A stretch of DNA of 64,000 nt from Chloroflexota bacterium (GCA_005883615.1 VBEC01000014.1:48497-112496), one strand, 5' to 3'. Positions 24,680 to 52,005 are shown, numbered from the stretch's first letter. The notes: generated by a model not told the origin, from the letters alone. Numbers and translations are program-made.

Positions 24680-25250
24680 CTCAATCCGACGGGCGGCCGG
24701 TCCTGGCATCGAGCGCGACCCGGTCCCCGCGGTAGCTCGTCAGGATGAGCTGTCCCCCGACGAGCTGTGCTTCCGTCACCACATCGGAGTGAGCGACCCG
24801 CCAGACGACGTCGCCCGACGCGTCGATCGCAAACGTCTCGATCTCCGCCTGGATCAGAACGTGGTCCAGCCGAGGCGAGCCGAACACCGCCAGGATCGGA
24901 GTCCCGGATCGATGGCTCCACCGCAACGTTCCGATTCGGGCCTCGAGCCCATATGTCAGGAAGCCGTAGGCGACGACCAGCAGGCCGGCCGTGTCCCACG
25001 CGATGCCGGCCGGCTCATCGAAGATGGGCGAGGCGAAGCGAACCGTCCACGATCCGACCGGGCCGTCGGCGCGGAGCTCGGCGCGACACAGGGCGGAGGG
25101 CTCCGACGACACCAGCTCCCCCAGATCGGTCAGGATCCCGCCGGCCTCCGAAAGAGCGAAGACCTCAGCTTCGCGGCCACTGCCTGCCCACCGGAATCGG
25201 GCGCGAAGGCCCCCTGGATACTGGACCACGGCGTCGTGGGCTGATGTCAC
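24680..25250 (-). CDS. Hypothetical protein (beta-rich, possible PQQ/beta-propeller-like repeat fragment)
   Basis: Protein-like composition in contrast to the Arg-rich ORFs on the opposite strand. GTG start. Downstream of ybaK on the same strand. Confidence 0.45.
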
Positions 25251-30766: not shown

Positions 30767-32686
30767 ATGGTAGATTCGACGTGTCGGCCGCGCCGATCCT
30801 CCCCAATTCCTGCCCGTCAGACGACCCCAGAGAGGCTCGACCCGCTCGTGGCGCTCGACCCCTACCAGGAATTCCTCGTCCAGCCCGTCGACGCGTCCTG
30901 GCTCCAGTGCAACATTGAGTGCCAGGAAGCCTGCCCGGTCGGCACCAATTGCCGGGGCTACCTCAACCTCGCCGCCGAGGGCCGCTTCGAGGAGGGCTAC
31001 ATCCTCTCGCGCGAGCCCAACCCCGTGGCGGCGATGTGCTCCTACGTCTGCTCGGCTCCGTGCGAGCGCGCCTGCCGGCGGGGTGACATCGACCGGCCCC
31101 TGGCCATCCGCGCGATGAAGCGCTTCCTCGTGGAATGGCACGAGGCGTCCGGAATCCCCGACGTGATGCCCCAGATCACCCCACGCGAGGAGCGTGTCGC
31201 CGTCGTCGGTGCAGGACCAGCCGGTCTGTCGGTCGCTCGCGAGCTGGCCATGAAGGGCATACGAGTCACGGTTTTCGACAGCCTGCCCTACGGCGGTGGC
31301 ACGATGCTGATCGGGGTGCCCGCGTTCCGTCTCCCGCGGGAGGCGATCGAGATGGACGTCCGCCTGATCGAGCGCCTCGGCGTGACTTTCGTCTACAACA
31401 CGACGATCGGCGTGGACATCACCTTCGATCAGCTCCAGCGCGACTTCGATGCGGTCGCGATCACGGCGGGCGCGATGAACCCGGTCATCCTCGACGTCCC
31501 CGGCCACGAGCTCGACGGGGTGCAGTACGGCGTCGACTTCATGAAGATCGCCAACCTCGGCGAGCAGCTCACCGTGGGCAACGACGTGGTCGTGATCGGC
31601 GGTGGCTACACGGCCATGGACTGCTCGCGCACGAGCCTCCGTCACGGTGCGGAAAACGTCGCGATCGTCTACCGGCGCACGCGCTCGGAACTCGTCGTCG
31701 ACGAAGAGGAGCTTGGCGAGACCGAGCGCGAGGGCGTTCGGATGGAGTTCCTGGCCAGCCCGGTCGAGGTGCTCGGGGAGGACGGTCACGTCACGGGCGT
31801 CAGGTTCATCCGCAACAAGCTGGGCGAGCCAGATGCATCGGGCCGCCGCTCACCGATCCCCATCCCCGGCTCGGAGTTCATGATCAAGGCCGACAGCGTG
31901 ATCCCCGCTGTGTCCCAGGCGGCGGATCTGACGTTCCTGCCCGTCGAGGCGAATTTCGAGATCGGCCGCGGTCGCGTGCGCGTCGACCCGGCGACCTACG
32001 CGAGCAACGTGCGGGGTGTGTTCGCATGCGGCGACTTCGTGACCGGTCCGACCACCCTCATCGAGGCTGCCGGCCATGGCAAGAAGTGCGCCTATGCAAT
32101 CGATCGCTACCTTGCCGCACAGGGCGACGTGACAGTGGACGCGAACGTCAAGATCACCAGCTCGTGGCGCCATGACATGCCCGAGATGTACGACGTCCTG
32201 CCTCGCCAGCACATCCCCATGGCCCCGCTCGCCGCGCGCATGGCCTCGACAGACCCCGAGGTGAACTTCACGACACCCGTCGAGCTCGGCTACGACGCCA
32301 CTCAGGCCGTCGCCGAGTCGACCCGCTGTCTCATGTGCAACTTCAACATCTGGTTCGACCCCTTCCGCTGCGTGTTGTGCGGCGCGTGCGCCGACGTCTG
32401 TCCCGAAGGCGTCATCCATATGGTCGACGTCAACCAGCTCAAGACCGAGGGCCTGCTGCCCGAAATCGAGGAGGCGTACGGCTGGGAAAACGGGGCGGCC
32501 ATGATCCTCGACGAGGAGCGCTGCATCCGCTGCGCGTTGTGCGTCAAGCGTTGCCCGTTCGACGCCATTACGATGGAGCGGTTCGAGCTGCAGGAGGTCT
32601 CGACTGACGGCCGGCTCTACAAGGAGTCGTACCGTGATGCGCAACTCGCCGGCACGCCCGGCGTGGCAGGAGGAGCCGTTCGGTGA
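30767..32686 (+). CDS. GltD-like FAD/NAD(P)H-dependent oxidoreductase fused to a C-terminal 2x[4Fe-4S] ferredoxin domain
   Basis: N-terminal Cys cluster (CNIECQEACPVGTNC ... CSYVCSAPCERAC). FAD GxGxxG VAVVGAGPAGL and NAD(P) GxGxxA VVVIGGGYTAMD. C-terminal CLMCN ... CVLCGACADVCP and CIRCALCVKRCP. Start uncertain (ATG 30767 or GTG 30848). Its stop overlaps the GTG start of cytochrome b6 (GTGA). Confidence 0.75.
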   Translation: MVDSTCRPRRSSPIPARQTTPERLDPLVALDPYQEFLVQPVDASWLQCNIECQEACPVGTNCRGYLNLAAEGRFEEGYILSREPNPVAAMCSYVCSAPCERACRRGDIDRPLAIRAMKRFLVEWHEASGIPDVMPQITPREERVAVVGAGPAGLSVARELAMKGIRVTVFDSLPYGGGTMLIGVPAFRLPREAIEMDVRLIERLGVTFVYNTTIGVDITFDQLQRDFDAVAITAGAMNPVILDVPGHELDGVQYGVDFMKIANLGEQLTVGNDVVVIGGGYTAMDCSRTSLRHGAENVAIVYRRTRSELVVDEEELGETEREGVRMEFLASPVEVLGEDGHVTGVRFIRNKLGEPDASGRRSPIPIPGSEFMIKADSVIPAVSQAADLTFLPVEANFEIGRGRVRVDPATYASNVRGVFACGDFVTGPTTLIEAAGHGKKCAYAIDRYLAAQGDVTVDANVKITSSWRHDMPEMYDVLPRQHIPMAPLAARMASTDPEVNFTTPVELGYDATQAVAESTRCLMCNFNIWFDPFRCVLCGACADVCPEGVIHMVDVNQLKTEGLLPEIEEAYGWENGAAMILDEERCIRCALCVKRCPFDAITMERFELQEVSTDGRLYKESYRDAQLAGTPGVAGGAVR

Positions 32687-33411
32687 GTTTCCTCGAGCGG
32701 GTGGACAACGCCATCCGCCGAAGCTCCGCTTGGCGCTCGCTGTTCCGTCAGCCGTACCCCTCGGACGAGCGTTCCCGGGCGTATGCGGTGATGAACAACG
32801 TCTTCCTGCATATCCATCCCGTCCGGGTGCGGCAGCACGCGGTGAAATTCGCCTACACCTTCTGCCTCGGCGGGCTGTCGTTCTTCCTGTTCCTGGTGCT
32901 GACGGTGACCGGCGTCTACCTGATGTTCTTCTACATCCCGTCGACGACCCAGGCGTACAGCAACATCCTGGACATCCAGGCACATCAGCCCTTCGGCCTG
33001 CTCACGCGAAACGTCCATCGTTGGGCCGCGCACCTGATGGTGTTCTTCGTCTTCCTGCACATGATGCGTGTCTTCTACCACGGTGCCTACAAGCCGCCAC
33101 GCGAGTTCAACTGGGTCGTTGGGATCATCCTTCTCTTCACGACCATCTTGCTGAGCTTCACGGGCTACCTGCTGCCGTGGGACCAGATCGCCTACTGGGC
33201 GATCACCATCGGCACGAACTTCGCCACCTACGTGCCTGTCTTCAACACCCCGACCCAGATCCTGTTGCTCGGTGGCCTGGAGGTTGGCCAGAACACGCTC
33301 CTGCGGTTCTACGTGCTCCACATCATGGTCCTGCCCCTGGTCGCGGCGATCTTCCTGGCGGTCCACTTCTGGCGAATTAGAAAGGACGGGGGCATTAGCG
33401 GACCGCTATGA
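32683..33411 (+). CDS. petB: Cytochrome b6 (b6f-type, N-terminal haem-binding half of cytochrome b)
   Basis: Four TM helices with conserved His pairs (HIHPV, HRWAAHLMVFFVFLHMMRV, HIMVLP). 242 aa, the typical split-b length. Confidence 0.9.
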   Translation: MSFLERVDNAIRRSSAWRSLFRQPYPSDERSRAYAVMNNVFLHIHPVRVRQHAVKFAYTFCLGGLSFFLFLVLTVTGVYLMFFYIPSTTQAYSNILDIQAHQPFGLLTRNVHRWAAHLMVFFVFLHMMRVFYHGAYKPPREFNWVVGIILLFTTILLSFTGYLLPWDQIAYWAITIGTNFATYVPVFNTPTQILLLGGLEVGQNTLLRFYVLHIMVLPLVAAIFLAVHFWRIRKDGGISGPL

Positions 33412-33545
33412 CAGCCATCTGCCGCGTTGCCGCCGCCGCTCCTTACTCATGCAAACCTCGGGCCGATGGCTTCGCGGAGCTCAGCCTCGGACCTCGGTGG
33501 GCGAACGCCAGCTCGCCATTGAGGGTGCTTACTCGTGATTGATCG

Positions 33546-34148
33546 ATGACTGATACCAAGAAGCCGTCCGAGCGGCGCGTCGTGCTGCCCGTCGATCCGT
33601 CGCGGCGAACGGAGATCGACAAGCAGCGCGTGCCGATGTCGGCGCGGCCGTACCGGCTCCTGGCGCTGGTCAAGCAGGACGCCGTCGTCCGCGTCCAGAA
33701 AGAGCCGGACGACACCGTGATGACCTGGCCGCATCTCCTGTCGATCGAGTTTCTGGCCGCCGGCATGATGAGCATCTTCGTGCTGCTCTTGGGGCTGTTC
33801 GTCAACGCGCCCCTGGAAGCGCTGGCAAACGGCAACTTGACACCGGCGGTGGCCAAGGCACCGTGGTACTTCCTCGGCCTCCAGGAGCTCCTGGCGTACG
33901 TCCACCCAACCGTTGCGGGCGTTTTGACGCCCACGTTTGTATTCGTTGGCGGAATCCTGCTCCCCTACGTCGACCGCGAAAATATCGATGAGCATCGGCC
34001 GTCGAATCGCAAGACTGCGGTCATGCTCTTCACCCTGCTGCTCGGCATGGGCCTGGTCGTCACGTTCGTTGGCATCTTCTTCCGGGGCGCGGGGTACACC
34101 TTCGTGCTCCCGTACATCGACTCACCCGGCCTCCATTTCAACCTCTGA
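33546..34148 (+). CDS. petD: Cytochrome b6f complex subunit IV (cytochrome b C-terminal half)
   Basis: PEWY-like region (APWYFLGLQELLAYVHP) and 3 TM helices. Confidence 0.85.
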   Translation: MTDTKKPSERRVVLPVDPSRRTEIDKQRVPMSARPYRLLALVKQDAVVRVQKEPDDTVMTWPHLLSIEFLAAGMMSIFVLLLGLFVNAPLEALANGNLTPAVAKAPWYFLGLQELLAYVHPTVAGVLTPTFVFVGGILLPYVDRENIDEHRPSNRKTAVMLFTLLLGMGLVVTFVGIFFRGAGYTFVLPYIDSPGLHFNL

Positions 34149-34181
34149 CCGCAGTCCAACGGTCTCCCCGGAAGTTTCCTG

Positions 34182-34856
34182 ATGAGCAACTATCAAGTCG
34201 AGCCGGTCGACCAACCGAAGGCCCTGACGCGCGAAGCCATCAAGGCACTGCGCAACGAGCAGGTCCAGGGCCTGTCAAGACGTCAGATGCTGCGCCGGTC
34301 AGTGGGCGGCGCGGTCCTCCTGTGGCTCGGGGAGGTCAGCCTTGGTACGGTCGGCTTCCTGTGGCCGAACCTGAGCGGTGGATTCGGAGCGAAGGTCAAG
34401 ATCGGCACCTACAACGACATCAAGCTGGCCAACAGCAACCTGCCTATCAATGAGGGATTTCCGGCCTACTACCCGGAGGCGCGGGCATTCGTCATCCTGA
34501 TCGACCCCGCCCGCCAGGAGTTCATCCCCGGGACCGACACGACCGGCGACGGCCACCCGCTCAACGTGCGCGGCCTGTACCAGCGTTGCCCGCACCTGGG
34601 TTGCCGGCCGAACCCGTGCCTCAAGAACTTCTGGTTCGAGTGCCCCTGCCACGGGTCCCGCTACGACCGGCTCGGCATCAAGGCAGATGGTGCGCGCTTT
34701 GGCCCGGCGCCCCGGAGCATGGACCGATTCTCAGCCACGGTCGACAGCGGGGGCGTGCTGACGCTCGACACCGGCAAGATCACGAAGGGGCCACTGCCGG
34801 TCGCGCTCGGTCAGCCAGGATTGATCCCGCCCAAGTCTCCGACCGGGTGCATTTAG
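34182..34856 (+). CDS. petC: Rieske [2Fe-2S] iron-sulfur subunit
   Basis: Tat signal (SRRQMLRR) and Rieske boxes CPHLGC ... CPCHGS. Confidence 0.9.
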   Translation: MSNYQVEPVDQPKALTREAIKALRNEQVQGLSRRQMLRRSVGGAVLLWLGEVSLGTVGFLWPNLSGGFGAKVKIGTYNDIKLANSNLPINEGFPAYYPEARAFVILIDPARQEFIPGTDTTGDGHPLNVRGLYQRCPHLGCRPNPCLKNFWFECPCHGSRYDRLGIKADGARFGPAPRSMDRFSATVDSGGVLTLDTGKITKGPLPVALGQPGLIPPKSPTGCI

Positions 34857-34890
34857 TGCAGCGGACGGCCGACGTCACCCGAGGATCGGC

Positions 34891-35961
34891 ATGACCGACG
34901 AGTCCGGAGGCGGACCGGAGCAGCGTCTGCCCGTGCCCCGGCCGGAAGCGGTCCCGGCGCCGGCAGAGCGTTTCAGCGCGCCACCCTCGGCTCACGCATT
35001 CGAGCTGACACCGGAGCGGGCGGCGGGCATCGTCCGCCAGTCGGCCAGCGCTCGATCGGTCGGGCTCCTCGCCGTGCTCGTCGTGTCGCTCTTCGTGGCT
35101 ATTTACTACTTCTACGACCTCGGCGTTCCCGGCATCTCCGGCACCGCGCGTCTGGCCGCCGAGGCCAGCGCCCAGCAGGTGACAGCGGTCGAGAATGGCC
35201 ACAACATCTTCGAGGCCAACTGCGCGCGCTGCCACGGAGCCAATGGCGAAGGCGGGATCGGCCCGGTCCTCCACGATCAGACCAAGCTCTTCCAGCACCT
35301 GAACGCGACCTACATCGCGGCCGTCCTGCGCGAGGGGGGCCGGCTCGTGTGTGGCAATGCCAAGAGCCTGATGCCGGTCTGGTCGAATGAAGGCAACCCA
35401 CCGGGGCCACTCAACTACATCGAGATCCAGGACCTGATCGCATTCATTCGAGCCCCGCAGACGCAGACCTTCCTGGTTCGGGACCCGACCACCAATGAAC
35501 CCGTCAAGGACGCCACCGGCAAGGACGAAACCTTCAACGGCTGGCTGGATCCGAACTACAAGCCGGCCGCGGATGCCACCCCGTTCCCGGACTGCTGGCA
35601 GGATGCCTTCAAGAGCAGCAGTTCACCGTCCGCTTCGGGATCTCCGTCAGCCTCGGCCACGGCTGCAGCGTCGTCCGGGGGGACCACCCTCAAGGAGACC
35701 GCCCAAGGCGTGGCTTTCCAGCAGACAGAGCTGACCGCGCCGGCCGGCCAGGGCTTCGTGATCCAGTTCACCAACAACGATGCCGGGACGTCGCACAACA
35801 TCGAGATCAAGAGCCCCGATGGGTCGGACGCGTTCAAGGGCGAGATCTTCGCGGGCCCCGGCGAGCGGACCTACAACGTGCCGCCCCTCGCGGCCGGGAC
35901 ATACCCGTTCATGTGCACCGTGCATCCGACCACGATGACCGGCACCCTCACGGTCAAGTGA
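34891..35961 (+). CDS. Membrane-anchored monoheme cytochrome c fused to a C-terminal type-1 copper cupredoxin domain
   Basis: N-terminal TM, CxxCH (CARCHGANGEGG), Ala/Ser linker, then cupredoxin ligands H (SHNIEI), C and H (FMCTVHP) and M (TTMTG). Confidence 0.8.
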   Translation: MTDESGGGPEQRLPVPRPEAVPAPAERFSAPPSAHAFELTPERAAGIVRQSASARSVGLLAVLVVSLFVAIYYFYDLGVPGISGTARLAAEASAQQVTAVENGHNIFEANCARCHGANGEGGIGPVLHDQTKLFQHLNATYIAAVLREGGRLVCGNAKSLMPVWSNEGNPPGPLNYIEIQDLIAFIRAPQTQTFLVRDPTTNEPVKDATGKDETFNGWLDPNYKPAADATPFPDCWQDAFKSSSSPSASGSPSASATAAASSGGTTLKETAQGVAFQQTELTAPAGQGFVIQFTNNDAGTSHNIEIKSPDGSDAFKGEIFAGPGERTYNVPPLAAGTYPFMCTVHPTTMTGTLTVK

Positions 35962-36007
35962 GCACACGTCCGGCGCGCGGACGCGTTTGGCGACAGGTGG
36001 GAGGACG

Positions 36008-37477
36008 ATGACGGAGGCGCTCGGTCCGGGACACAGGCAGCGGGGTCGACCGGTCTTCGGCCTGCTCGACGCCGACGGCTGGGGCTGGGCATTCCTCAAA
36101 GCCTTCTTCTGGTTCATCGTGATCCTGTTCCTTCTGGGCTATCTACCCGACCGCGCGTACTACTTCACGGTCAATCCCACCATCGACCTCGGGATCAACG
36201 CCGTTTCGCCGGTGAACTTCTGCCCGCCCGAGAACGCTGGCCTCCCCTGTCCCGCCCCGCCCGGAGGGGTCCTGCCGTGGCAGTCCTCCCCGGCCCAGCT
36301 GAAGCTGCCCGAGGCACGCCGCGACGGAGCGGCGGTGCAGGTCGGCACCAACCTGCTGTACATCGGCGGCAGCGACGGCAAGGCCCCCAGCGCGAAGGTC
36401 TACGTGACGGACCTGTTCGGCGACGGCAACTATGCGCCGTGGCGCGCGGGGCCGGACCTGCCCGAACCGCGCACCAAGGCCGCCGCCGTCTTCTTCAGCG
36501 GCTCGATCTTCGTCGCCGGCGGCGACGACGCGTCGGGCAAGCCGACCACCACCATGTGGATCCTGACGCCAGACGCCCAGACCGGCAGCCTCGGAACCTG
36601 GAAGCCCGCCGCCGACACGACCGGCAAGAACGACCCGAAACTCGACCTGAAGCTGCTGGAGGCCCGCGACGGAGCCTCGCTGGCGGCGGCGGCGGACGGA
36701 TTGTTCCTGGTCGGCGGTCGTAACGCCTCGGGCCCCGTCAATACGGTCTGGAAGTCGACCATCGACACGAAAGGTGTCCTCCACGCCTGGCAGCCAACCA
36801 CCGCGGGAACCATGCCCGGCACTCGCGCGGACGGCCTGGCCTTCCTTAACGGGAACTTCCTGTACGTGTACGGCGGCGTGGACGGCGGCTCTCCCACCAC
36901 CGCGGTCTGGGTTGCCCAGGTCGGCAAGGACAAGGACGGCGCGAGCCAGCTGACCGCGTGGGCCAGCAACATCCAGTCCTTGCCGGCGGCGCGCACGAAC
37001 GCCTCGGGTTTCGTGGCCAACCAGGCTATCTACCTGGTCGGCGGCTCGGACGGCAGCAAGGCACATACCGAGCTCTACTGGGCGATCCCGAGCAGCAACG
37101 GGGCGATCACGGAGTGGAAGCATCTATCGAACTCCGATCTGCCCGCCGGCGGTCTCCTCGGGTCGGCGGCCGCGGTCAGCGGCAGTCACGCCTTCCTGAT
37201 CGGGGGCCAGTCGGGGAACGGCCTGACCGGCTCGACGCTGCGCACGAACCTGGCACCAAAGCCGCCCTTCTTCCAGCTCGGCCTCGTGGGTGCGACGGTG
37301 CCCGGGCTCAAGATCGAGGGCGACATCGGGCCGCAGCTGGGGCTCCTCGCGGCCGCCGGCGTGGGCACGGGCAACTTCGTCATCCTGCTGCTGATCGCCT
37401 ACCTGTTCGCACACAAGGCACAGGTTCGGGCGTGGTTCTACCGAATGCGAGAGCGTCGCCGCGCGCGAGAAACCTGA
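36008..37477 (+). CDS. Kelch-repeat (beta-propeller) membrane protein
   Basis: GGAGG RBS before the ATG at 36008. N-terminal TM, 5-6 Kelch-like repeats (LYIGGSDG, IFVAGGDD, LFLVGGRN, LYVYGGVDG, IYLVGGSDG, AFLIGGQSG) and a C-terminal TM. Located 47 nt after the cyt c-cupredoxin gene. Confidence 0.7.
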   Translation: MTEALGPGHRQRGRPVFGLLDADGWGWAFLKAFFWFIVILFLLGYLPDRAYYFTVNPTIDLGINAVSPVNFCPPENAGLPCPAPPGGVLPWQSSPAQLKLPEARRDGAAVQVGTNLLYIGGSDGKAPSAKVYVTDLFGDGNYAPWRAGPDLPEPRTKAAAVFFSGSIFVAGGDDASGKPTTTMWILTPDAQTGSLGTWKPAADTTGKNDPKLDLKLLEARDGASLAAAADGLFLVGGRNASGPVNTVWKSTIDTKGVLHAWQPTTAGTMPGTRADGLAFLNGNFLYVYGGVDGGSPTTAVWVAQVGKDKDGASQLTAWASNIQSLPAARTNASGFVANQAIYLVGGSDGSKAHTELYWAIPSSNGAITEWKHLSNSDLPAGGLLGSAAAVSGSHAFLIGGQSGNGLTGSTLRTNLAPKPPFFQLGLVGATVPGLKIEGDIGPQLGLLAAAGVGTGNFVILLLIAYLFAHKAQVRAWFYRMRERRRARET

Positions 37478-41262: not shown

Positions 41263-41337
41263 GGGCCGGTAGCTCAACGGCAGAGCAGGCGCCTTTTAAG
41301 CGCTTGGTTGTGGGTTCGAGTCCCACCCGGCTCACCA
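41263..41337 (+). tRNA. tRNA-Lys (anticodon UUU)
   Basis: Cloverleaf folded by hand: acceptor GGGCCGG/CCGGCTC, D-arm GCTC/GAGC, anticodon stem GGCGC/GCGCT with loop CTTTTAA, T-arm GTGGG/CCCAC with TTCGAGT loop, encoded CCA. Confidence 0.85.
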
Positions 41338-44732: not shown

Positions 44733-44808
44733 TCGCGGGGTGGAGCAGCGGCAGCTCGTCGGGCTCATAACCCGAAGGTCGGAGGTTCGAATCCTTCCCC
44801 CGCAACCA
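44733..44808 (+). tRNA. Initiator tRNA-fMet (anticodon CAU)
   Basis: Near-identical in pattern to bacterial initiator tRNA: C1xA72 mismatch, three consecutive G-C pairs in the anticodon stem (TCGGG/CCCGA), loop CTCATAA, encoded CCA. Confidence 0.9.
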
Positions 44809-44864: not shown

Positions 44865-45617
44865 CTATTCCCAGCGGAACGTGAGGATGGCGAGAGCGGA
44901 GGCTCCGATCGCCCAGACGGCCAGGAGCACGAGTGGTGGCGTGAAGTCGCCGGCCGAGCTCCCGAGGGCGATCCGCAACAGATCCGAGAGCGCGCTCGCC
45001 GGCAGCAGCCTGGCAACCGCAGCCACTGCGGCCGGAAGCTGGTCGAGCGGGACGACGATGCCGCCGAGCAGCAGCAGCGCCAGGAACAGGCCGTTGGCGC
45101 CGGCGAGCGTGGCCTCCGCTCTCAGGGACCCGGCCATGGCCAGCCCGATTCCCGCGAACGCCAGCGTCCCGAGGAGCAACCCGACGACGACGAGCGCTGT
45201 GCCGGAGCCAGCCGGCGGTCGCCATCCGAGGAACGCCAGCGCCACCGCGAAGAGCACGGCGAACTGAACGATCTCGACGACCAGGACGGCGAGCATCTTC
45301 GCGCCGATCAGGCCGGCTCGTGGAAGCGGCGAGCCGCCGAGGAGCTTCAACACCCCGTAGTAGCGTTCATAGGCCGTTGCGATTCCGAGGTTGACGAGCG
45401 ACGTCGAGATGACGGCCAGCGCCAGGACGCCGGGCAACAGGAAGTCGACAGGCCGACCGGCCGTTACCGGCACGATTGACGTCGAGGCGAAGAACAGCAG
45501 CACCACGACGGGCAGGACGATGATGACGAGCACGTTTTCGCCACGACGTGCCGTCAAGCGCAGCTCCATGCCCGTCTGGGCGAGAGTCGATCGCCAGGCC
45601 GTTGCGGGAGCGCTCAC
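44865..45617 (-). CDS. ABC-2 type transporter permease
   Basis: Six TM helices. Downstream of and overlapping the DrrA-like ATPase gene. Confidence 0.8.
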   Translation of the reverse strand: MSAPATAWRSTLAQTGMELRLTARRGENVLVIIVLPVVVLLFFASTSIVPVTAGRPVDFLLPGVLALAVISTSLVNLGIATAYERYYGVLKLLGGSPLPRAGLIGAKMLAVLVVEIVQFAVLFAVALAFLGWRPPAGSGTALVVVGLLLGTLAFAGIGLAMAGSLRAEATLAGANGLFLALLLLGGIVVPLDQLPAAVAAVARLLPASALSDLLRIALGSSAGDFTPPLVLLAVWAIGASALAILTFRWE

Positions 45618-46585
45618 GCGTCTGCCTCCCCGCGCGGCGCGCCGGGCTCGCCTTCTGCGCCCGCAACGAGCTCCAGGTAGCGCTCCTCCAGCGACCCGCG
45701 GCCCGTCGTCAGCTCCGCAATGAGAAGTCCGCGCTCCGCACTCCAGCGCGCAAGCCTGGCGAGCACGTCCGGCTCCGCCGTGACTCCGTCGAGCCGGTAG
45801 CGGCCTCCTCCCTCATCGGTCAGACTGCCTGGTGCGCCATCGAGCAGTGTGCCGCTCAGTTCCTCTCGGTCGGCGACCTCGAGGGGATGAGGCAATCGGA
45901 AACGCAGCCGGGGGGATGCCGAGGAGGCGAGCTCGTCAGGGGATCCAGCGGCGACCAGCCGGCCGTGGTCGATCAGGGCGACGTGGTCGGCCAATCGTTC
46001 GACATCGGCGAGGTCGTGTGTCGTCAACAGGATCGCGACGCCGGTCCCGCGCAGCTCGGCGATGAGGGTCCGGGTCGCGGCACGGCCTTCGGGATCCATG
46101 CCCGCGGTCGGCTCGTCCAGGATCAGGACCTCTGGATCGCCCACCAAGGCGACCGCCAGAGCCAGCCGCTGCTTCTCGCCCCCCGAAAGGCGGCGGTAAG
46201 GCGTTCGAGCGCTGGTCCGCAACCCAACGAGATCGATCAGCTTCTGCGGGCCTCGCCCGCCGGCGTGGAAGTTCGCATACAGCCGCAGGATTTCATCGGG
46301 CCGTGCCTGTGGATAGATGCCGCCGCCGCCCTGGAGCATCAGGCCGACCCGGGCCTTCAGGTTCCGGCCGCCTGTCCCTGGGTCCGTGCCCAGCACGCGG
46401 ACCGAGCCTCCATCGGCGGTTCGGTAACCCTCCACGATCTCGACCGTGGTCGTCTTTCCGGCGCCATTCGGACCCAGGAGCGTGAACACCTCGCCGCGCG
46501 ACACGCTGAAGGTCAGGCCATCGACCACCGGTCGAGCTCCGTATCGCTTGGTGAGGTCGTCGACGACGATTGCCGGGTCGGTCAC
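45614..46585 (-). CDS. ABC transporter ATP-binding protein (DrrA/ABC-2 exporter type)
   Basis: Walker A GPNGAGKTT, LSGGEKQRLALAVAL, Walker B ILDEPTAGMD. Confidence 0.9.
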   Translation of the reverse strand: MTDPAIVVDDLTKRYGARPVVDGLTFSVSRGEVFTLLGPNGAGKTTTVEIVEGYRTADGGSVRVLGTDPGTGGRNLKARVGLMLQGGGGIYPQARPDEILRLYANFHAGGRGPQKLIDLVGLRTSARTPYRRLSGGEKQRLALAVALVGDPEVLILDEPTAGMDPEGRAATRTLIAELRGTGVAILLTTHDLADVERLADHVALIDHGRLVAAGSPDELASSASPRLRFRLPHPLEVADREELSGTLLDGAPGSLTDEGGGRYRLDGVTAEPDVLARLARWSAERGLLIAELTTGRGSLEERYLELVAGAEGEPGAPRGEADA

Positions 46586-47049
46586 CGCAGGATGGCGGCG
46601 AGCTGGCGGTCGAGATCGGCCGCGGTCAGCTCGCCGATCTGGCGCGATAGGATGACGCCCTTCCGATCGATGAAGTAGGACTGCGGCGGCGCGACGGCCT
46701 GATACGTTGCCTTGGCCGAACCGTCCGGATCCGGAAGGCTGGGCCAGCTGGCGCTGTGGTTCATCATGAAGTCACGGGCCGGTCCCGGGCTGTCGTTCCA
46801 GAGGACGCCCACGATCTCGAGGCCCTCGGCCTGGTGGTCGGCGTTGTACCGCTCGAGGAGCAACGGGAACTCCCGGGTGCACGGCACGCACCATGAGGCC
46901 CAGAAGTTCACCAGGACTGGGTGCCCTCGCAGGCTCGAAAGGCTCACCGCCCTGCCATCGATCGCAGTGCCGGCCAGCTCAGGGGCCAGCTGGCCGACCG
47001 TAGCAACCGGCTTGCTCGTGGCGCAGCCCCCGACGGCAGACAGGAGCAA
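46582..47049 (-). CDS. TlpA/ResA-family thiol-disulfide oxidoreductase (redoxin)
   Basis: WASWCVPC thioredoxin motif. Annotated TTG start. The in-frame upstream sequence encodes a lipoprotein-like signal (RLLAAALLLSAVGGC) with no canonical start codon, so the true start is uncertain. Confidence 0.75.
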   Translation of the reverse strand: MLLSAVGGCATSKPVATVGQLAPELAGTAIDGRAVSLSSLRGHPVLVNFWASWCVPCTREFPLLLERYNADHQAEGLEIVGVLWNDSPGPARDFMMNHSASWPSLPDPDGSAKATYQAVAPPQSYFIDRKGVILSRQIGELTAADLDRQLAAILR

Positions 47050-47110: not shown

Positions 47111-48202
47111 CTACTTGATCGTCAGTGTCCCCGTCATCGTCGGGTGGACGGAGCAGGTGAAGGGATACGCGCCCGCGGCGAGCGCGGGGACGTTGTAGAC
47201 GGTCGAAATGGGGCCGGTCACGATCTCGCCCTTGAACACATCCTTGCCGGAAGCGTCCTTGATGTCCACGTTGTGCATGGTGGCCTGGTCTTTGTTCTGG
47301 AAGGCGATCGTGAACGGCTTGCCGGCGGGACCGGCCACATCGGGCGTGGTGAACTGGGTTGCTTCGGCAACGATCGAGACATCGCCCTTTGGCGCCGGGG
47401 CGTTCGACGGAGCCGAACCCCCCGATCCACTACCCGGGCCGGCCGCAGCGCCGGGAGCCGGCGAGCCGGCCGCGGCGGTCGTGGAGGTCTTGGGCGGCAG
47501 CACCCCCGACTGGATGACGACTGCGGCGCCTACAAGGATCACGAAGAGCGCGAGCGTGCCCATCGGGAAGGCCGGCGCCGGCGGTGGCGGCTGATGCCCC
47601 CTCCGATCGGCCTCCTCTACCAGCCGATATTCGTGCCGCGCGTCGCGCAGCCAGCCGAGCAGCGAGATGGCGAGCGTGACGATCCCGACGAGCAGCAGCG
47701 CCGGCCCGAACACAAGCCCGAAGAAGATGATCGCCAGGGCGATCGAAGCAAGGATCGGCTGGAATGATGGCACCGGGGCGTGGACACCCGGTGGCGGCTC
47801 CTCGCGCACGACCACGAGCGCGGTGTCCCGCCCCAGGAGGTGGTCGTGCTCGCGCATCGCCTCGCGGCCCCAGTACAGCAACGCCAGGGCCATCCCGATC
47901 GCGGCCAGGGGAATGGCCATGCCACCCGCCACCAGAGCGAACAGGACGAGGAAGGTCGCGATCGCACCAAAGAACGGAGCAAACGACGGCACCGGTGGGT
48001 GAACGCCGGGCGGCGGGGCCGGCGTAAGGCGGGTGCGGCCGCGTCGCCGCGGACCTACGCGAGTGAACGACCAGCCCAGCCACAGTATGTAAAGGACGAC
48101 CAGGCCCAGGATGGCCAAGGGCAGCAGTGCGATCAGCGAGCCCCAGTCGGGGGTGATGATCTGCGAGAGGATGTTGAGGATCTGGTCCCAGACGGCCTGC
48201 AT
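47111..48202 (-). CDS. Polytopic membrane protein with internal tandem duplication and C-terminal type-1 copper cupredoxin domain
   Basis: Two repeats of a 2-TM unit containing PPGVH(P/A)PVPSF. Ala/Pro/Gly linker. Cupredoxin ligands H (TMHNVDI), C and H (FTCSVHP) and M (TMTG). Its C-terminus is paralogous to the tails at 35961 and 50672. Confidence 0.7.
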   Translation of the reverse strand: MQAVWDQILNILSQIITPDWGSLIALLPLAILGLVVLYILWLGWSFTRVGPRRRGRTRLTPAPPPGVHPPVPSFAPFFGAIATFLVLFALVAGGMAIPLAAIGMALALLYWGREAMREHDHLLGRDTALVVVREEPPPGVHAPVPSFQPILASIALAIIFFGLVFGPALLLVGIVTLAISLLGWLRDARHEYRLVEEADRRGHQPPPPAPAFPMGTLALFVILVGAAVVIQSGVLPPKTSTTAAAGSPAPGAAAGPGSGSGGSAPSNAPAPKGDVSIVAEATQFTTPDVAGPAGKPFTIAFQNKDQATMHNVDIKDASGKDVFKGEIVTGPISTVYNVPALAAGAYPFTCSVHPTMTGTLTIK

Positions 48203-48214
48203 CGGGCGGCTCGG

Positions 48215-48409
48215 TCAGTCCCGGGGCGAGCCGGAGATCAGGACGTAGGCCATCAGACCCATCGCGATGCCCAGCGCACCGAGCATCGTCACCCCGGCGT
48301 AGTCAAGCTGCCACTTGCCGAAGTAGGGGACGGCCCAATAGATCACGCCGATGACGACGAAGATCACTCCCACGAGGAAGGCGTTCCGAGGATGGCGCAG
48401 CGGATGCAT
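48215..48409 (-). CDS. Putative small cytochrome c oxidase subunit IV-like membrane protein
   Basis: 64 aa with two TM helices, directly downstream of ctaE. Start at the internal ATG (MHPLRHP) chosen to avoid overlapping ctaE. Confidence 0.35.
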   Translation of the reverse strand: MHPLRHPRNAFLVGVIFVVIGVIYWAVPYFGKWQLDYAGVTMLGALGIAMGLMAYVLISGSPRD

Positions 48410-48420
48410 GACGCCGCCCG

Positions 48421-49044
48421 CTACAGGATGTAGAGGGTCGAGAAGAGGGCAACCCACACCACGTCGACGAAGTGCCAGTACAGGGAGGTTGCTTCGACGG
48501 CATCGTGGTGGCGGGCGGTGAACTGCCCGGCCAGCGCCCGGTAGAGGATCACGCTGAGCATGATCGTGCCGCCCAGGACGTGGGCGCCGTGGAAGCCGGT
48601 CAGCGTGAAGAACGTGGTCCCGAAGGTGCCGTCGGTCAGCCCGAAGCCGAGCTGGCTGTAGTCATACGCCTGGCCGAGCAGGAAGGCGATCCCCAGCACG
48701 AGCGTGACCGCAATGCCGCGCACTAGTCCGCGCCGGTCGTCGCGGCGGATGGCCCAGATGCCGAGCTGGCACGTGAACGAGCTGGTGACAAGGATGACCG
48801 TGAGGATGGCGGCCTTCCAGGGGTCTTCATGGAGGTTGAAGTGCGGGTTGTCCGCCGGCGGCCACGGGCGCGTCGACGCGCGGACCGTGAAGTAGGCGCC
48901 AAAGAGCCCGGCGAAGAACATGACCTCGCTGGTGATGAACAGCAGCATCCCGAGGACGGGGTTGCTGATTCCACCGCGCTGGTCGTGCGCCAGCCCGGCG
49001 ACGAGGCTGTGCTCGGTGGTGAGTGCGTGAGAGTCGGCTGTCAC
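48421..49044 (-). CDS. ctaE: Cytochrome c oxidase subunit III
   Basis: Five TM helices with conserved GFHGAHV and YWHFVDVVW motifs. Confidence 0.9.
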   Translation of the reverse strand: MTADSHALTTEHSLVAGLAHDQRGGISNPVLGMLLFITSEVMFFAGLFGAYFTVRASTRPWPPADNPHFNLHEDPWKAAILTVILVTSSFTCQLGIWAIRRDDRRGLVRGIAVTLVLGIAFLLGQAYDYSQLGFGLTDGTFGTTFFTLTGFHGAHVLGGTIMLSVILYRALAGQFTARHHDAVEATSLYWHFVDVVWVALFSTLYIL

Positions 49045-50663
49045 GCGTGGTTACCGGCACGACCGTGACGCAAGTCGAACAGCGGACGCTCGGAGCGGAT
49101 CTCAGGAAGATGGTCGAAGTTGTAGGGCGGCGGCGGGGAGCTCGTGGCCCATTCGAGGGTGTTGGCCTCCCACGGATCGTCGCCCGCCGGCTCGCCGTTG
49201 CGGAGCGAGATCATCACGTTCCACAGGAACGGCAGCATGCTCGTGGCAATCGTGAAGCCGCCGATCGTCGCCAGCAGGTTCAGCTCGCTCCAGCCGGCGG
49301 CTGCGCTGTAGTCGGCCACCCGCCGGGGCATGCCCATCAGTCCCAGCATGTGCATCGGGAAGAAGGTCAGGTTGAAGCCCACGAACATGAGCACGAAATG
49401 GATCTTGCCCAGGGTTTCGTCGAGCAGCCGGCCGGTCATCTTGGGGAACCAGTAGTACAGGCCGGCGAACATTCCGAACACCGACCCGCCGAAGAGCACG
49501 TAGTGGAGATGGGCGACCACCCAGTACGTGTCATGCAGGGCGAAATCCACGGGAACGGCCGCGCTGAAGGCGCCGTTGATGCCCCCGATCAGGAACATGG
49601 TCAGGAAGCCCAACGCGAACAGCATCGGCGTGCTGAAGATCAGCTGGCCTCGGAACAGCGTCGCGACCCAGTTGAACATCTTGACGCCCGTCGGCACCGC
49701 GATGAGGAACGTCATCAGTGAGAAGAACGGCAGGAACACCGAACCCGTCGTGAACATGTGGTGGGCCCACACGGAGAAGCCCAGGGCACCGATGCCCGCG
49801 GTGGCGAACACGAACGCCTTGTACCCGAACAGTGGCTTGCGCGAGAACACGGGCAGGATCTCGCTGACCATACCCATCGCGGGCAGGACCATGACGTACA
49901 CCGCGGGGTGCGAGTAGAACCAGAACACGTTCTGCCAGAGGATGGCGTTGCCGCCGGTGGCCGGATCGAAGAAGTGGCCGCCGTAGTTGCGGTCGATGAA
50001 CAGCATGATCAAGGCGCTGGTGAACACGGGCGTGGCCATCAGCACGAGCACACTCGTGACGAGGACTGTCCAGACGAGGATCGGCAGCCGGAACATGGTC
50101 AGTCCCGGAGCGCGCATCTTGAAGATGGTGGTCAGGAAGTTGACCGCCCCCAGGATGGAACTCGTCCCGATGAGGATCAGGCCCACTGCCCAGAGGTCGG
50201 TGCCCGTGCCGGAATAGGCGCGTTGGGCCAGCGGGCTGTAGCCCGTCCAGCCCTCGGCCGCCGCGCCGCCCGTGAAGAAGCCGGTGAACATCAGGATGCC
50301 GCCCAACGGCAGCATCCAGAAGGACAGCGCATTGATGCGCGGGAAGGCCATGTCCGGGGCGCCGATCTGGAGGGGGACGACGTAGTTTGCGAAGCCGGCC
50401 AGGATGGGGATGATGAACAGGAAGATCATCACAGTCCCGTGCATCGTGAACAGCTGGTTGTAGACGTCCGGGGCGAAGAACTGGATCTTCGGCTGAGCGA
50501 GTTCGGCGCGCACGCCGAGCGCCAGGAGCCCCGCCAGGAAGAAGAACAGCAACGAGTTGACGACGTACAGGATGCCGATCTTCTTGTGGTCGGTCGTCGT
50601 GATCCACTCGTACAGCCCGCTCCGGTAGGCGGGGACGGCGGGGTGTAGCGCAGTCGTCGCCAT
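49041..50663 (-). CDS. ctaD: Cytochrome c oxidase subunit I (haem-copper oxidase, aa3 type)
   Basis: TTDHKKIG, the full set of haem a / CuB His ligands (WAHHMF, HHMFT etc.) and a GGAG RBS 8 nt before the ATG at 50663. The track ORF N-extension to 50720 was rejected. Confidence 0.95.
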   Translation of the reverse strand: MATTALHPAVPAYRSGLYEWITTTDHKKIGILYVVNSLLFFFLAGLLALGVRAELAQPKIQFFAPDVYNQLFTMHGTVMIFLFIIPILAGFANYVVPLQIGAPDMAFPRINALSFWMLPLGGILMFTGFFTGGAAAEGWTGYSPLAQRAYSGTGTDLWAVGLILIGTSSILGAVNFLTTIFKMRAPGLTMFRLPILVWTVLVTSVLVLMATPVFTSALIMLFIDRNYGGHFFDPATGGNAILWQNVFWFYSHPAVYVMVLPAMGMVSEILPVFSRKPLFGYKAFVFATAGIGALGFSVWAHHMFTTGSVFLPFFSLMTFLIAVPTGVKMFNWVATLFRGQLIFSTPMLFALGFLTMFLIGGINGAFSAAVPVDFALHDTYWVVAHLHYVLFGGSVFGMFAGLYYWFPKMTGRLLDETLGKIHFVLMFVGFNLTFFPMHMLGLMGMPRRVADYSAAAGWSELNLLATIGGFTIATSMLPFLWNVMISLRNGEPAGDDPWEANTLEWATSSPPPPYNFDHLPEIRSERPLFDLRHGRAGNHA

Positions 50664-50671
50664 GCTGCTCC

Positions 50672-51820
50672 TTACCTGACGGTCAGCGTTCCGATCATGG
50701 TCGTGGGATGCACCTTGCAAACGAAGCTGTATTTGCCGGCAGGCAGGGGATTGACCGCGTAAAGCCGCGAGTCGGGACCGGTGATGACCTCACCGTCGAA
50801 GACCACCGCGCCGGTCGGCGAGTCCTTGTGGATGTCGACGTTGTGCTGGGTCGCCTGGTCGGCGTTGGTGAATTTGATGTCGAAGGGCTGGTTGGCGGGT
50901 GCCTCGAGGCTGTCCTTGTCGAAGGCCACGTTCTTGGCGGTCAGATCGAGCGTGACCTGAGCGCTCGGCGGCCCGCTCGCGGTGACCGAGCTGGCGCCCG
51001 GCGAGCCACTCGGCGATGGCGCGCCGCTGGCCGCCGGTGCGGGCGTGGCCTTCGCCTGCGTGATCTGCTGCTGAAGCCAGGCGTCGAATTCCGTCGGCGT
51101 CTTGGCCTGCACCTCGAACGACATGCCCTGGTGACCGATCCCGCACAGCTCCGCGCATTGGCCACGGAAGGTCTGGCCGGCGTCGGTCGCGTCGACCATG
51201 AAGTCGAACGTGTTCTCCTTGCCCGGAACCACGTCGCGCTTGAACAGGAATTGAGGGACGTAGAAGGCATGGATCACGTCGGGGCTGTGCAGCGACAGGT
51301 GAACGGTCTGGCCGGCCGGGACGACCATCGTGCCGGGCAACGAGACCGCCTTGCCGTCGGGACCCCTGATCAGGGACTGCCCATCCGGGCCGAGGTACTG
51401 GAAGCTCCAATCGAACCGCCGTGCGATCGCCACCACGTGGACCTGTGGGTTGGGCGAGGTGGCCTCGACGGTGTTGAGCGTCTGCCATGAGATGACGAAT
51501 AGGTAGGCGACGATGACCGTCGGGATGATCGTCCAGATGATCTCGATCAGGTTGTTCCCGTGGATCTGCGGCGGCAGCTCCGTGTCGGTGGGGTGCCGTC
51601 GATAGCGGATGACCGCATAGACGATAAGGCCCTCGACGACGAAGAAGATCGCCGCGGCGATCAGGAACACGATGTCGTACAGGTTCCTGATGTCGTGGCC
51701 CTGCGCCGTGGCCGCCTTGGGCGGATAGAAGCTGTCGATCACGGAGCAACCTGTGACGGCGGCGGCGACGCCCGCGAGCGCGAGCACCCGCGCGAGGCGC
51801 GTCGGCGTCGTCCGGAACAT
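50672..51820 (-). CDS. ctaC: Cytochrome c oxidase subunit II (CuA) with extra C-terminal cupredoxin (type-1 Cu) domain
   Basis: Lipoprotein signal (AAAVTGCS), two TM helices, CuA site H ... CAELCGIGHQGM, then Ala/Ser/Pro linker and a cupredoxin with H (TQHNVDI), C and H (FVCKVHP) and M (TTMIG). Confidence 0.9.
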   Translation of the reverse strand: MFRTTPTRLARVLALAGVAAAVTGCSVIDSFYPPKAATAQGHDIRNLYDIVFLIAAAIFFVVEGLIVYAVIRYRRHPTDTELPPQIHGNNLIEIIWTIIPTVIVAYLFVISWQTLNTVEATSPNPQVHVVAIARRFDWSFQYLGPDGQSLIRGPDGKAVSLPGTMVVPAGQTVHLSLHSPDVIHAFYVPQFLFKRDVVPGKENTFDFMVDATDAGQTFRGQCAELCGIGHQGMSFEVQAKTPTEFDAWLQQQITQAKATPAPAASGAPSPSGSPGASSVTASGPPSAQVTLDLTAKNVAFDKDSLEAPANQPFDIKFTNADQATQHNVDIHKDSPTGAVVFDGEVITGPDSRLYAVNPLPAGKYSFVCKVHPTTMIGTLTVR

Positions 51821-52005
51821 CGGCAAGGGTGTCTCCGAAGTCGATCGGTCAGCGGTCGCGGTCAGCGCCCGGGACGAGACGCGACCGGCGGAGTCGGCAA
51901 CGTGGCCCGACCTCGGCCGGACCGCTCCAATCATACCCGCAGACTTCGGGCATGTGTCGGGTGCCGGCCGGCCGCCCGAGGGTGCCGATCGTCATTCGGG
52001 GCACA

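Follow-up and report, generated by a model that had tools for sequence, protein, structure and literature searches.

An unusual membrane protein that ends in a blue-copper domain is encoded within the cytochrome oxidase gene cluster of a Chloroflexota bacterium. Its gene lies in a 64,000-nucleotide (nt) stretch of DNA (GCA_005883615.1 VBEC01000014.1:48497-112496), which is referred to here as the window and whose positions are collected in Table 1. The 363-amino acid (aa) protein is read as an integral, subunit III/IV-type accessory subunit of the aa3-type oxidase encoded in the same cluster, whose tethered blue-copper domain would relay electrons from a bc complex to CuA; as a whole, this reading is probable, though held with some reserve. 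Taken by themselves, structural membership of the oxidase is likely and a redox relay role for the cupredoxin is fairly likely, and the position of each membrane hairpin, the binding of copper, the electron-transfer partners and the direction of transfer are inferred.

The open reading frame (ORF) begins with ATG, and its G+C content at the three codon positions is 0.68/0.52/0.85. It is considered a real gene because this pattern fits a genome of 68% G+C; codon periodicity, which the original prediction (made from sequence alone) had named as a point on which it could fail, is strong. That prediction had described a membrane protein with a tandem repeat of two-helix units, a Pro/Ala/Gly linker and a C-terminal cupredoxin, and the description is borne out by the ORF itself, BLASTP, an AlphaFold2 model and Pfam. 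Two of its details need amendment: the repeat, with two helices and one of the motifs in each copy, has a period of 73 aa and not about 80, and besides the two hairpins there are an N-terminal transmembrane (TM) helix (residues 20-48) and a sixth (214-231) that had gone unlisted. When one genome per species was scanned, 362 species representatives turned out to encode a relative, and synteny was counted in 80 of the loci. Mis-assembly or accidental gene fusion is ruled out, as the full-length architecture recurs in 80 independent assemblies; the cupredoxin, whose being out of frame elsewhere would have spoken against the prediction, is in frame, with residues 1-363 (or all but the last 1-3) matched in 79 of the 80.

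The AlphaFold2 model, built on 119 homologues, has a mean predicted local distance difference test (pLDDT) score of 81.6. It places helices at residues 2-16, 20-48, 75-92, 96-124, 148-165, 167-201 and 214-231, leaves 239-267 disordered, and ends in a confident beta-sandwich (275-362), with pLDDT above 93 for the cupredoxin. Of the six predicted TM helices, four make up the two hairpins, one lies before them at the N-terminal side and one after them. Arginine occurs six, four and five times in the loops that follow TM1, TM3 and TM5, respectively, and not at all in the hairpin turns, and the N-terminus before TM1 is free of lysine and arginine. From this distribution of arginine over the loops, both repeat motifs are placed in the cytoplasm and both ends of the protein, cupredoxin included, outside; the orientation of the hairpins in the membrane agrees with that in COX3. 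Homologue alignments show D199 and G202 of the charged loop after the second hairpin to be invariant and A198 and H203 nearly so, and the tether in front of the cupredoxin to differ in both length and sequence.

Within the membrane part, PPGVHPPVPSFAP at residue 64 is followed by PPGVHAPVPSFQP at residue 137. Self-alignment, the check proposed with the original prediction, confirms the tandem repeat: when one half is compared with the other by BLASTP, a gap-free alignment of residues 63-119 to 136-192 results, with 44% identity over 57 aa (E 4e-14). Both copies are kept in 119 homologues, where the mean identity of unit 1 to unit 2 is 43% (range 34-53%). Unit 1 copies are more alike across species than they are to unit 2 copies, and the hairpin duplication is taken to predate the diversification of the family. 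A six-frame scan of the whole window found the unit only in this gene, exactly twice.

The origin of the unit is indicated by a repeat profile that was made from 34 units and searched against all sequences in the PDB. It matched subunit III of R. sphaeroides (1m56_C residues 10-65; E 7e-5), residues 9-64 of mitochondrial COX3 (E 4e-4 to 3e-3), the C-terminal TM13-14 of B. subtilis aa3-600 QoxB (residues 580-622; E 0.003) and the I+III junction of T. thermophilus caa3, at the start of the subunit III part (E 0.056), all of which are one structural module in its known locations. Hidden Markov models (HMMs) of the two units match the COX3 N-terminal hairpin independently, at 20.0-21.5 bits for unit 1 and 29 bits for unit 2, the latter being the copy nearer to canonical COX3 TM1-2. 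In these alignments the invariant His of GVH falls on His10 of R. sphaeroides subunit III, P-S..P on PS.WP, and the W-L-R-D-A-R-x-E that follows helix 2 on WWSDVVTE or WWRDVIRE. Divergent family members, of 419-448 aa, carry PPGVHLPGPSPWPF, the canonical COX3 PSPWP motif, in an unchanged gene order of short COX3, small ORF, target-type gene and TlpA. The units are very probably homologous to the hairpin of COX3 and CtaF, and on this sequence evidence the repeat would be the N-terminal hairpin of subunit III (COX3 TM1-2), detached and duplicated. That the repeat unit has homologues, which the original prediction had left to be established, is evident from the COX3/CtaF hairpin matches and from the hundreds of relatives of the protein.

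CtaE, the subunit III encoded in the same cluster, is a short form. Since the repeat unit is the very hairpin that the neighboring CtaE lacks, the membrane part of the 363-aa protein is probably a structural subunit of the oxidase and not a mere anchor. A comparable division is described for Actinobacteria, in which CtaE and CtaF together make up the canonical subunit III, the TM1-2 equivalents come from CtaF, and the III-IV interface is formed by CtaE and CtaF (PMC8361435). According to the same review, subunit III borders the D-pathway entrance. The protein described here resembles CtaF, the source of the TM1-2 equivalents of subunit III (PMC8361435), in being encoded with a short, five-helix CtaE and in apparently offering such equivalents itself, and four of six homologues scanned match the C-terminal half of Cyt_c_ox_IV (PF12270) above the Pfam cut-off. 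CtaF, however, is about 139 aa long (in mycobacteria); of its four helices only one hairpin bears the motif, and it lacks an extramembrane domain. The protein in the window has 363 aa, with the motif on two hairpins, and has a cupredoxin and two additional helices. It should not be classed as a plain CtaF, from which it departs in size, in the number of helices and in domains, and its own Pfam score lies below the cut-off; in effect it would function as a CtaF combined with a tethered carrier.

Both Pfam families named in the original prediction were followed up, and they fared differently. PF12270 was matched by six homologues that were scanned, four at 30-43 bits and two at 25.8 and 26.5 (cut-off 26.9); the matches are limited to profile positions of about 78-125, fall into two stretches in three of the six, and are best in unit 2. 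The proposed link of the repeat to Cyt_c_ox_IV is accordingly supported by homologues. The link to DUF420 (CtaM) does not, as the protein has no PF04238 match at E up to 0.1, and the sole weak DUF420 match in the cluster lies in CtaE.

The C-terminal domain scores 42.5 bits against Pfam Cupredoxin_1 (cut-off 27), and its nearest structures are Cupredoxin_1/EfeO-type domains, auracyanins, amicyanin, a Nitrosopumilus cupredoxin and AcoP. The residues H310, C350, H353 and M356 are invariant across 119 sequences, and the ligand loop, C-x2-H-x2-M, is of the short amicyanin type. When the domain is aligned directly with P. versutus amicyanin (E 4e-7), MHNV falls on PHNV and FTCSVHPTMTG on YFCTPHPFMRG, which places the four type-1 ligands and the C-x2-H-x2-M loop in register. 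By fold and ligands the domain is a type-1 cupredoxin with a predicted copper site. Of the two roles that had been offered originally, a membrane-tethered electron carrier and a copper chaperone, the first is supported in so far as the protein reads as a membrane-tethered blue-copper protein tied to the oxidase.

The second role, a copper chaperone or CuA-assembly factor working with the adjacent TlpA-like protein, is very improbable. Its attraction is the neighbor itself, a TlpA-like gene whose identity is confirmed by Pfam and NCBIfam (ResA) and which is present in 78 of the 80 loci. The invariant ligand set and loop are, however, exactly those of the redox type-1 site in amicyanin, the match of the membrane part is to a structural subunit, and paralogous domains are fused to structural redox subunits, namely CtaC and the cytochrome c of the bc complex. 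In Pfam and NCBIfam, the protein has no match to the PCuAC and Sco chaperone families.

These paralogues are a further feature of the system. The CtaC cupredoxin is 48% identical to that of the 363-aa protein (E 2e-28), and the cupredoxin of the bc-complex cytochrome c subunit is 55% identical to the latter (E 4e-33) and 54% to that of CtaC. The three types form mostly separate groups, and the four ligands are kept in at least 90% of the members of each. At the C-terminus of CtaC, a linker and a type-1 cupredoxin stand where caa3 oxidases have a cytochrome c, and the CuA motif is intact.

The third cupredoxin is found in a bc/b6-type complex III operon at 32683..35961 on the plus strand, 11 kb from the gene for the 363-aa protein. 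Its cytochrome c-cupredoxin subunit is likely the electron donor. The fusion is kept full length in at least 119 protein clusters, of which the few that are named are from Chloroflexota/Limnocylindrales metagenome-assembled genomes (MAGs). Where the flanks reach far enough, bc genes are near the oxidase cluster in other genomes as well (loci L016, L039, L046 and L062). Two genes adjoin the operon in the window. A Kelch beta-propeller protein is encoded directly after the cytochrome c-cupredoxin gene; it is also a neighbor in L010, L016, L039, L046 and L062, and partly in L001. On the other side, a GltD-like oxidoreductase gene may be co-transcribed with the bc complex, because it overlaps the cytochrome b6 start by 4 nt; its listed ORF is 1203 aa, of which only the part beyond about 30.8 kb has the codon bias of coding sequence.

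Alternatively, the protein could be pictured as a free-standing, membrane-anchored carrier of the auracyanin kind that diffuses between the bc complex and the oxidase, its six helices serving only as an anchor. The nearness of its cupredoxin to auracyanin and amicyanin fits such a shuttle, as do the long flexible tether and the paralogous domains on both complexes. A simple anchor, however, needs neither six helices nor near-invariant cytoplasmic motifs, and the proposal leaves unexplained why the anchor should be a conserved subunit III module that is absent from CtaE. The gene also sits between ctaE and tlpA, which are present in 79 and 78 of the 80 loci, respectively. A freely diffusing carrier is for these reasons considered unlikely.

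For the favored reading, an oxidase subunit with a tethered copper relay, the following process can be envisioned. Subunit III would be split, with CtaE keeping helices 3-7 and the 363-aa protein supplying the missing hairpin, as CtaF does in Actinobacteria; one hairpin, probably that of unit 2, would complete subunit III beside CtaE. The cytoplasmic His-Pro-rich motif and the charged loop that follows would then lie near the D-pathway entrance, like the N-terminal region of subunit III elsewhere. The N-terminal helix and the sixth helix would bring both ends of the chain to the outer face, where a flexible tether some 30 to 60 residues long would hold the amicyanin-like type-1 copper domain. 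This domain probably acts as a tethered one-electron relay or entry site, accepting an electron from the cupredoxin or the haem of the bc complex and passing it on to CuA, either directly or through the cupredoxin of CtaC. The second hairpin might take the position of CtaF TM1-2 or serve as the contact to complex III or to another oxidase.

The last option has been extended to a clamp, in which one hairpin completes subunit III and the other binds to the bc/b6-type complex or to another oxidase monomer, so that complexes III and IV would be hard-wired. Several observations agree with it: the III-IV interface in Actinobacteria is formed by CtaE and CtaF (PMC8361435), the duplication is ancient with both copies conserved, the oxidase and bc operons are linked in several genomes, and all carriers seen in the window are membrane-tethered (the cupredoxins of CtaC and the 363-aa protein as well as the cytochrome c-cupredoxin subunit). 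Such a supercomplex is hypothetical, however; the hairpins are joined on the cytoplasmic side by only about 25 residues, and the second hairpin could simply occupy the CtaF TM1-2 position. The clamp is accordingly a tentative extension of the favored reading. An equally speculative and more far-reaching proposal is that the Limnocylindria chain is hard-wired from bc/b6 to aa3 with no diffusible carrier, electrons passing from the cytochrome c haem over three paralogous tethered blue-copper domains to CuA, and that the duplicated hairpin is the interface of an obligate III-IV supercomplex or of an oxidase dimer.

It is important to set out what weighs against assigning the protein to the oxidase. 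Its own score with Cyt_c_ox_IV is 18.1 bits (E 0.003), below the cut-off of 26.9, and an hhalign comparison of its family with mycobacterial CtaF is weak (E 1.4e-3, probability 17%), although the CtaF alignment used was shallow because its members are 85-99% identical. Matches between TM segments can be inflated by composition. The canonical enzyme has one site for the hairpin, and the protein, with two hairpins, has one more than that site would call for. The lineage is known from MAGs only, and membership of the oxidase is proposed from sequence.

The family has few members and is confined to one lineage: when 1.84 billion proteins were searched exhaustively by HMMER with the membrane part alone, only 367 cluster representatives emerged. 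Protein searches returned hundreds of relatives, of which the best 120 are almost all full length and, save for four close relatives at 73-99%, 45-53% identical to the query; where these 120 have names at all, they are called "plastocyanin" or "cupredoxin domain-containing protein" and belong to Chloroflexota or Candidatus Limnocylindrales MAGs. All 80 of the loci shown are Chloroflexota/Limnocylindria-type MAGs. The gene order is well kept across all 80, with ctaE in 79, the small ORF in 78, ctaD in 78, tlpA in 78 and the ABC genes in 73-74; for ctaC there is a match in every locus, although where the upstream side is cut off, in a dozen or so cases, it is the cupredoxin of the target-type protein itself that matches. 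In open-access papers and preprints no description was found of a subunit III/IV-type protein fused to a cupredoxin or of the three-cupredoxin arrangement, nor did literature of this kind on Limnocylindria/Ellin6529 respiration yield one.

In the window the order on the minus strand is ctaC-ctaD-ctaE-small ORF-target-tlpA-ABC. The target gene had been placed directly downstream of the oxidase operon; more than that, it lies inside a tightly packed cluster, 12 nt from the small ORF upstream and 61 nt from the TlpA/ResA-like gene downstream. Gaps and overlaps throughout are between -4 and +61 nt, except for the ORFs of ctaC and ctaD, which overlap by 49 nt; the true start of ctaD may be further downstream than listed. 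CtaD has no additional C-terminal helices and is not matched by the unit HMM. For CtaE the best NCBIfam match is aa3_CtaE_Actin, at 168.5 bits (cut-off 190). A Caa3_CtaG assembly gene lies upstream of the cluster and is divergent from it, and a promoter and terminator scan of the cluster gave no signal above chance. At the downstream end, the ABC-2 transporter genes are translationally coupled to the TlpA-like gene. Just past the end of the cluster is a tRNA-Met gene, and the window contains two other tRNA genes and the gene for a multidomain signalling protein.

The small ORF between ctaE and the target gene has no Pfam or PDB match, apart from one weak PF12270 hit across Pfam scans of 30 members. 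An hhalign comparison with residues 6-55 of CtaF is colinear (E 4.8e-4), with a probability of only 32%, and with HMMER the score against CtaF is 4.9 bits, which is within about 2.3 standard deviations of shuffled controls and not significant. The small ORF is a tentative candidate for the equivalent of CtaF's N-terminal half.

Table 1. Positions of the oxidase cluster, the bc/b6-type operon, segments of the 363-aa protein and other features, counted from the first nucleotide of the window.
Feature	Position	Strand	Description
Whole gene, 363-aa protein	47111..48202	-	N-terminal helix and TM1, two subunit III-type hairpins, TM6, linker, type-1 copper cupredoxin
Residues 1-48	48059..48202	-	amphipathic helix, invariant PDWG motif (P18 D19 W20), TM1; N-terminus predicted outside
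Repeat unit 1, residues 63-119	47846..48016	-	motif PPGVHPPVPSFAP, then two-helix hairpin
Repeat unit 2, residues 136-192	47627..47797	-	motif PPGVHAPVPSFQP, two-helix hairpin, then WLRDARHE
Residues 193-238	47489..47626	-	charged cytoplasmic loop, then PAPxxP and TM6; chain brought to outer face (predicted)
Residues 239-267	47402..47488	-	flexible tether rich in Pro/Ala/Gly/Ser; pLDDT <50
Residues 268-363	47114..47401	-	amicyanin/auracyanin-like cupredoxin; ligands H310, C350, H353, M356 (predicted)
ctaC	50672..51934	-	subunit II with CuA; Pfam COX2_TM, COX2, Cupredoxin_1; C-terminal cupredoxin at residues of about 323-420
ctaC, C-terminus	50672..50980	-	linker and type-1 cupredoxin
ctaD	49041..50720	-	subunit I; TIGR02891, 717 bits over residues 39-540
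ctaE	48421..49044	-	short five-helix subunit III without TM1-2; PF00510 profile positions 78-255 of 258 only
Small ORF	48215..48409	-	64 aa, two TM helices, MHPLRHPRN...DYAGVTML...GSPRD; between ctaE and target gene
TlpA/ResA-like	46582..47049	-	thiol-disulfide oxidoreductase; Pfam AhpC-TSA, Redoxin; NCBIfam ResA
ABC-2 type transporter	44865..46585	-	ATPase and permease, DrrA/DrrB-like (Pfam, NCBIfam); last genes of the cluster
GltD-like	about 30800..32686	+	oxidoreductase; Fer4_20, Pyr_redox_2, two 4Fe-4S motifs
Cytochrome b6-like	32683..33411	+	split cytochrome b
Subunit IV-like protein	33546..34148	+	split cytochrome b
Rieske protein	34182..34856	+
Cytochrome c-cupredoxin subunit	34891..35961	+	356 aa; TM anchor, monohaem cytochrome c (CARCH), Ser/Ala/Pro linker, third cupredoxin; Pfam Cytochrom_C and Cupredoxin_1
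Kelch protein	35987..37477	+	496-aa Kelch beta-propeller
tRNA-Met(CAT)	44734..44808	+	just past the end of the oxidase cluster
tRNA-Leu(GAG)	25117..25197	-
tRNA-Lys(TTT)	41263..41337	+
Signalling protein	19468..22434	-	988 aa, multidomain, C-terminal GGDEF diguanylate cyclase domain

Beyond CtaF, the membrane part can be compared with subunit III in its other known arrangements. With the seven-helix COX3 of R. sphaeroides and mitochondria it shares the H-x3-PS-x2-P motif, the two-helix hairpin, W(W/L)RDxxxE and the orientation; there, however, the hairpin is single and covalently joined to helices 3-7, whereas in the 363-aa protein it stands apart from those helices, occurs twice and is linked to other parts. 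The two-helix module has also moved to a different polypeptide in B. subtilis QoxB (the C-terminal TM13-14) and in the I+III protein of T. thermophilus caa3, but there as a single copy attached to subunit I and lacking a redox domain. The module is duplicated in another way in a 413-aa protein, P0343, of an unrelated metagenome contig (L082 565..1806), which has two complete CtaF-like four-helix copies with a soluble stretch between them and no cupredoxin.

The proposed relay also has parallels. In caa3-type oxidases a cytochrome c is fused to subunit II, and the principle is the same, an electron-entry carrier tethered to an oxidase subunit; in the system described here, the carrier would be a copper and not a haem domain, and it is present on two subunits, CtaC and the 363-aa protein. 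A membrane domain of the subunit III type is, to our knowledge, found neither in AcoP nor in the auracyanins of Chloroflexus and Roseiflexus, which have a simple anchor at most. The copper site of AcoP is green, and the protein is part of an iron-oxidation chain. It is a cupredoxin that is bound to the A. ferrooxidans oxidase (PMC4059628).

Among the core subunits of the haem-copper oxidases, subunit III is the one understood least. Its N-terminal two-helix module is known to change polypeptides, appearing on CtaF and at the end of subunit I, and the protein described here would be a further solution, with the module present twice and linked to a redox domain. The names "plastocyanin" and "cupredoxin domain-containing protein" hide the oxidase-subunit part of these proteins, and the annotation is corrected here. 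The architecture is unexpected, yet its parts are familiar, and the mechanism, inferred from MAGs, is a testable hint of a tethered copper relay. This appears to be an undescribed variant of a known respiratory enzyme, so far confined, among the loci shown, to uncultured Limnocylindria-type Chloroflexota; if the proposal is true, a subunit that is usually regarded as cofactor-free would carry copper in these bacteria.

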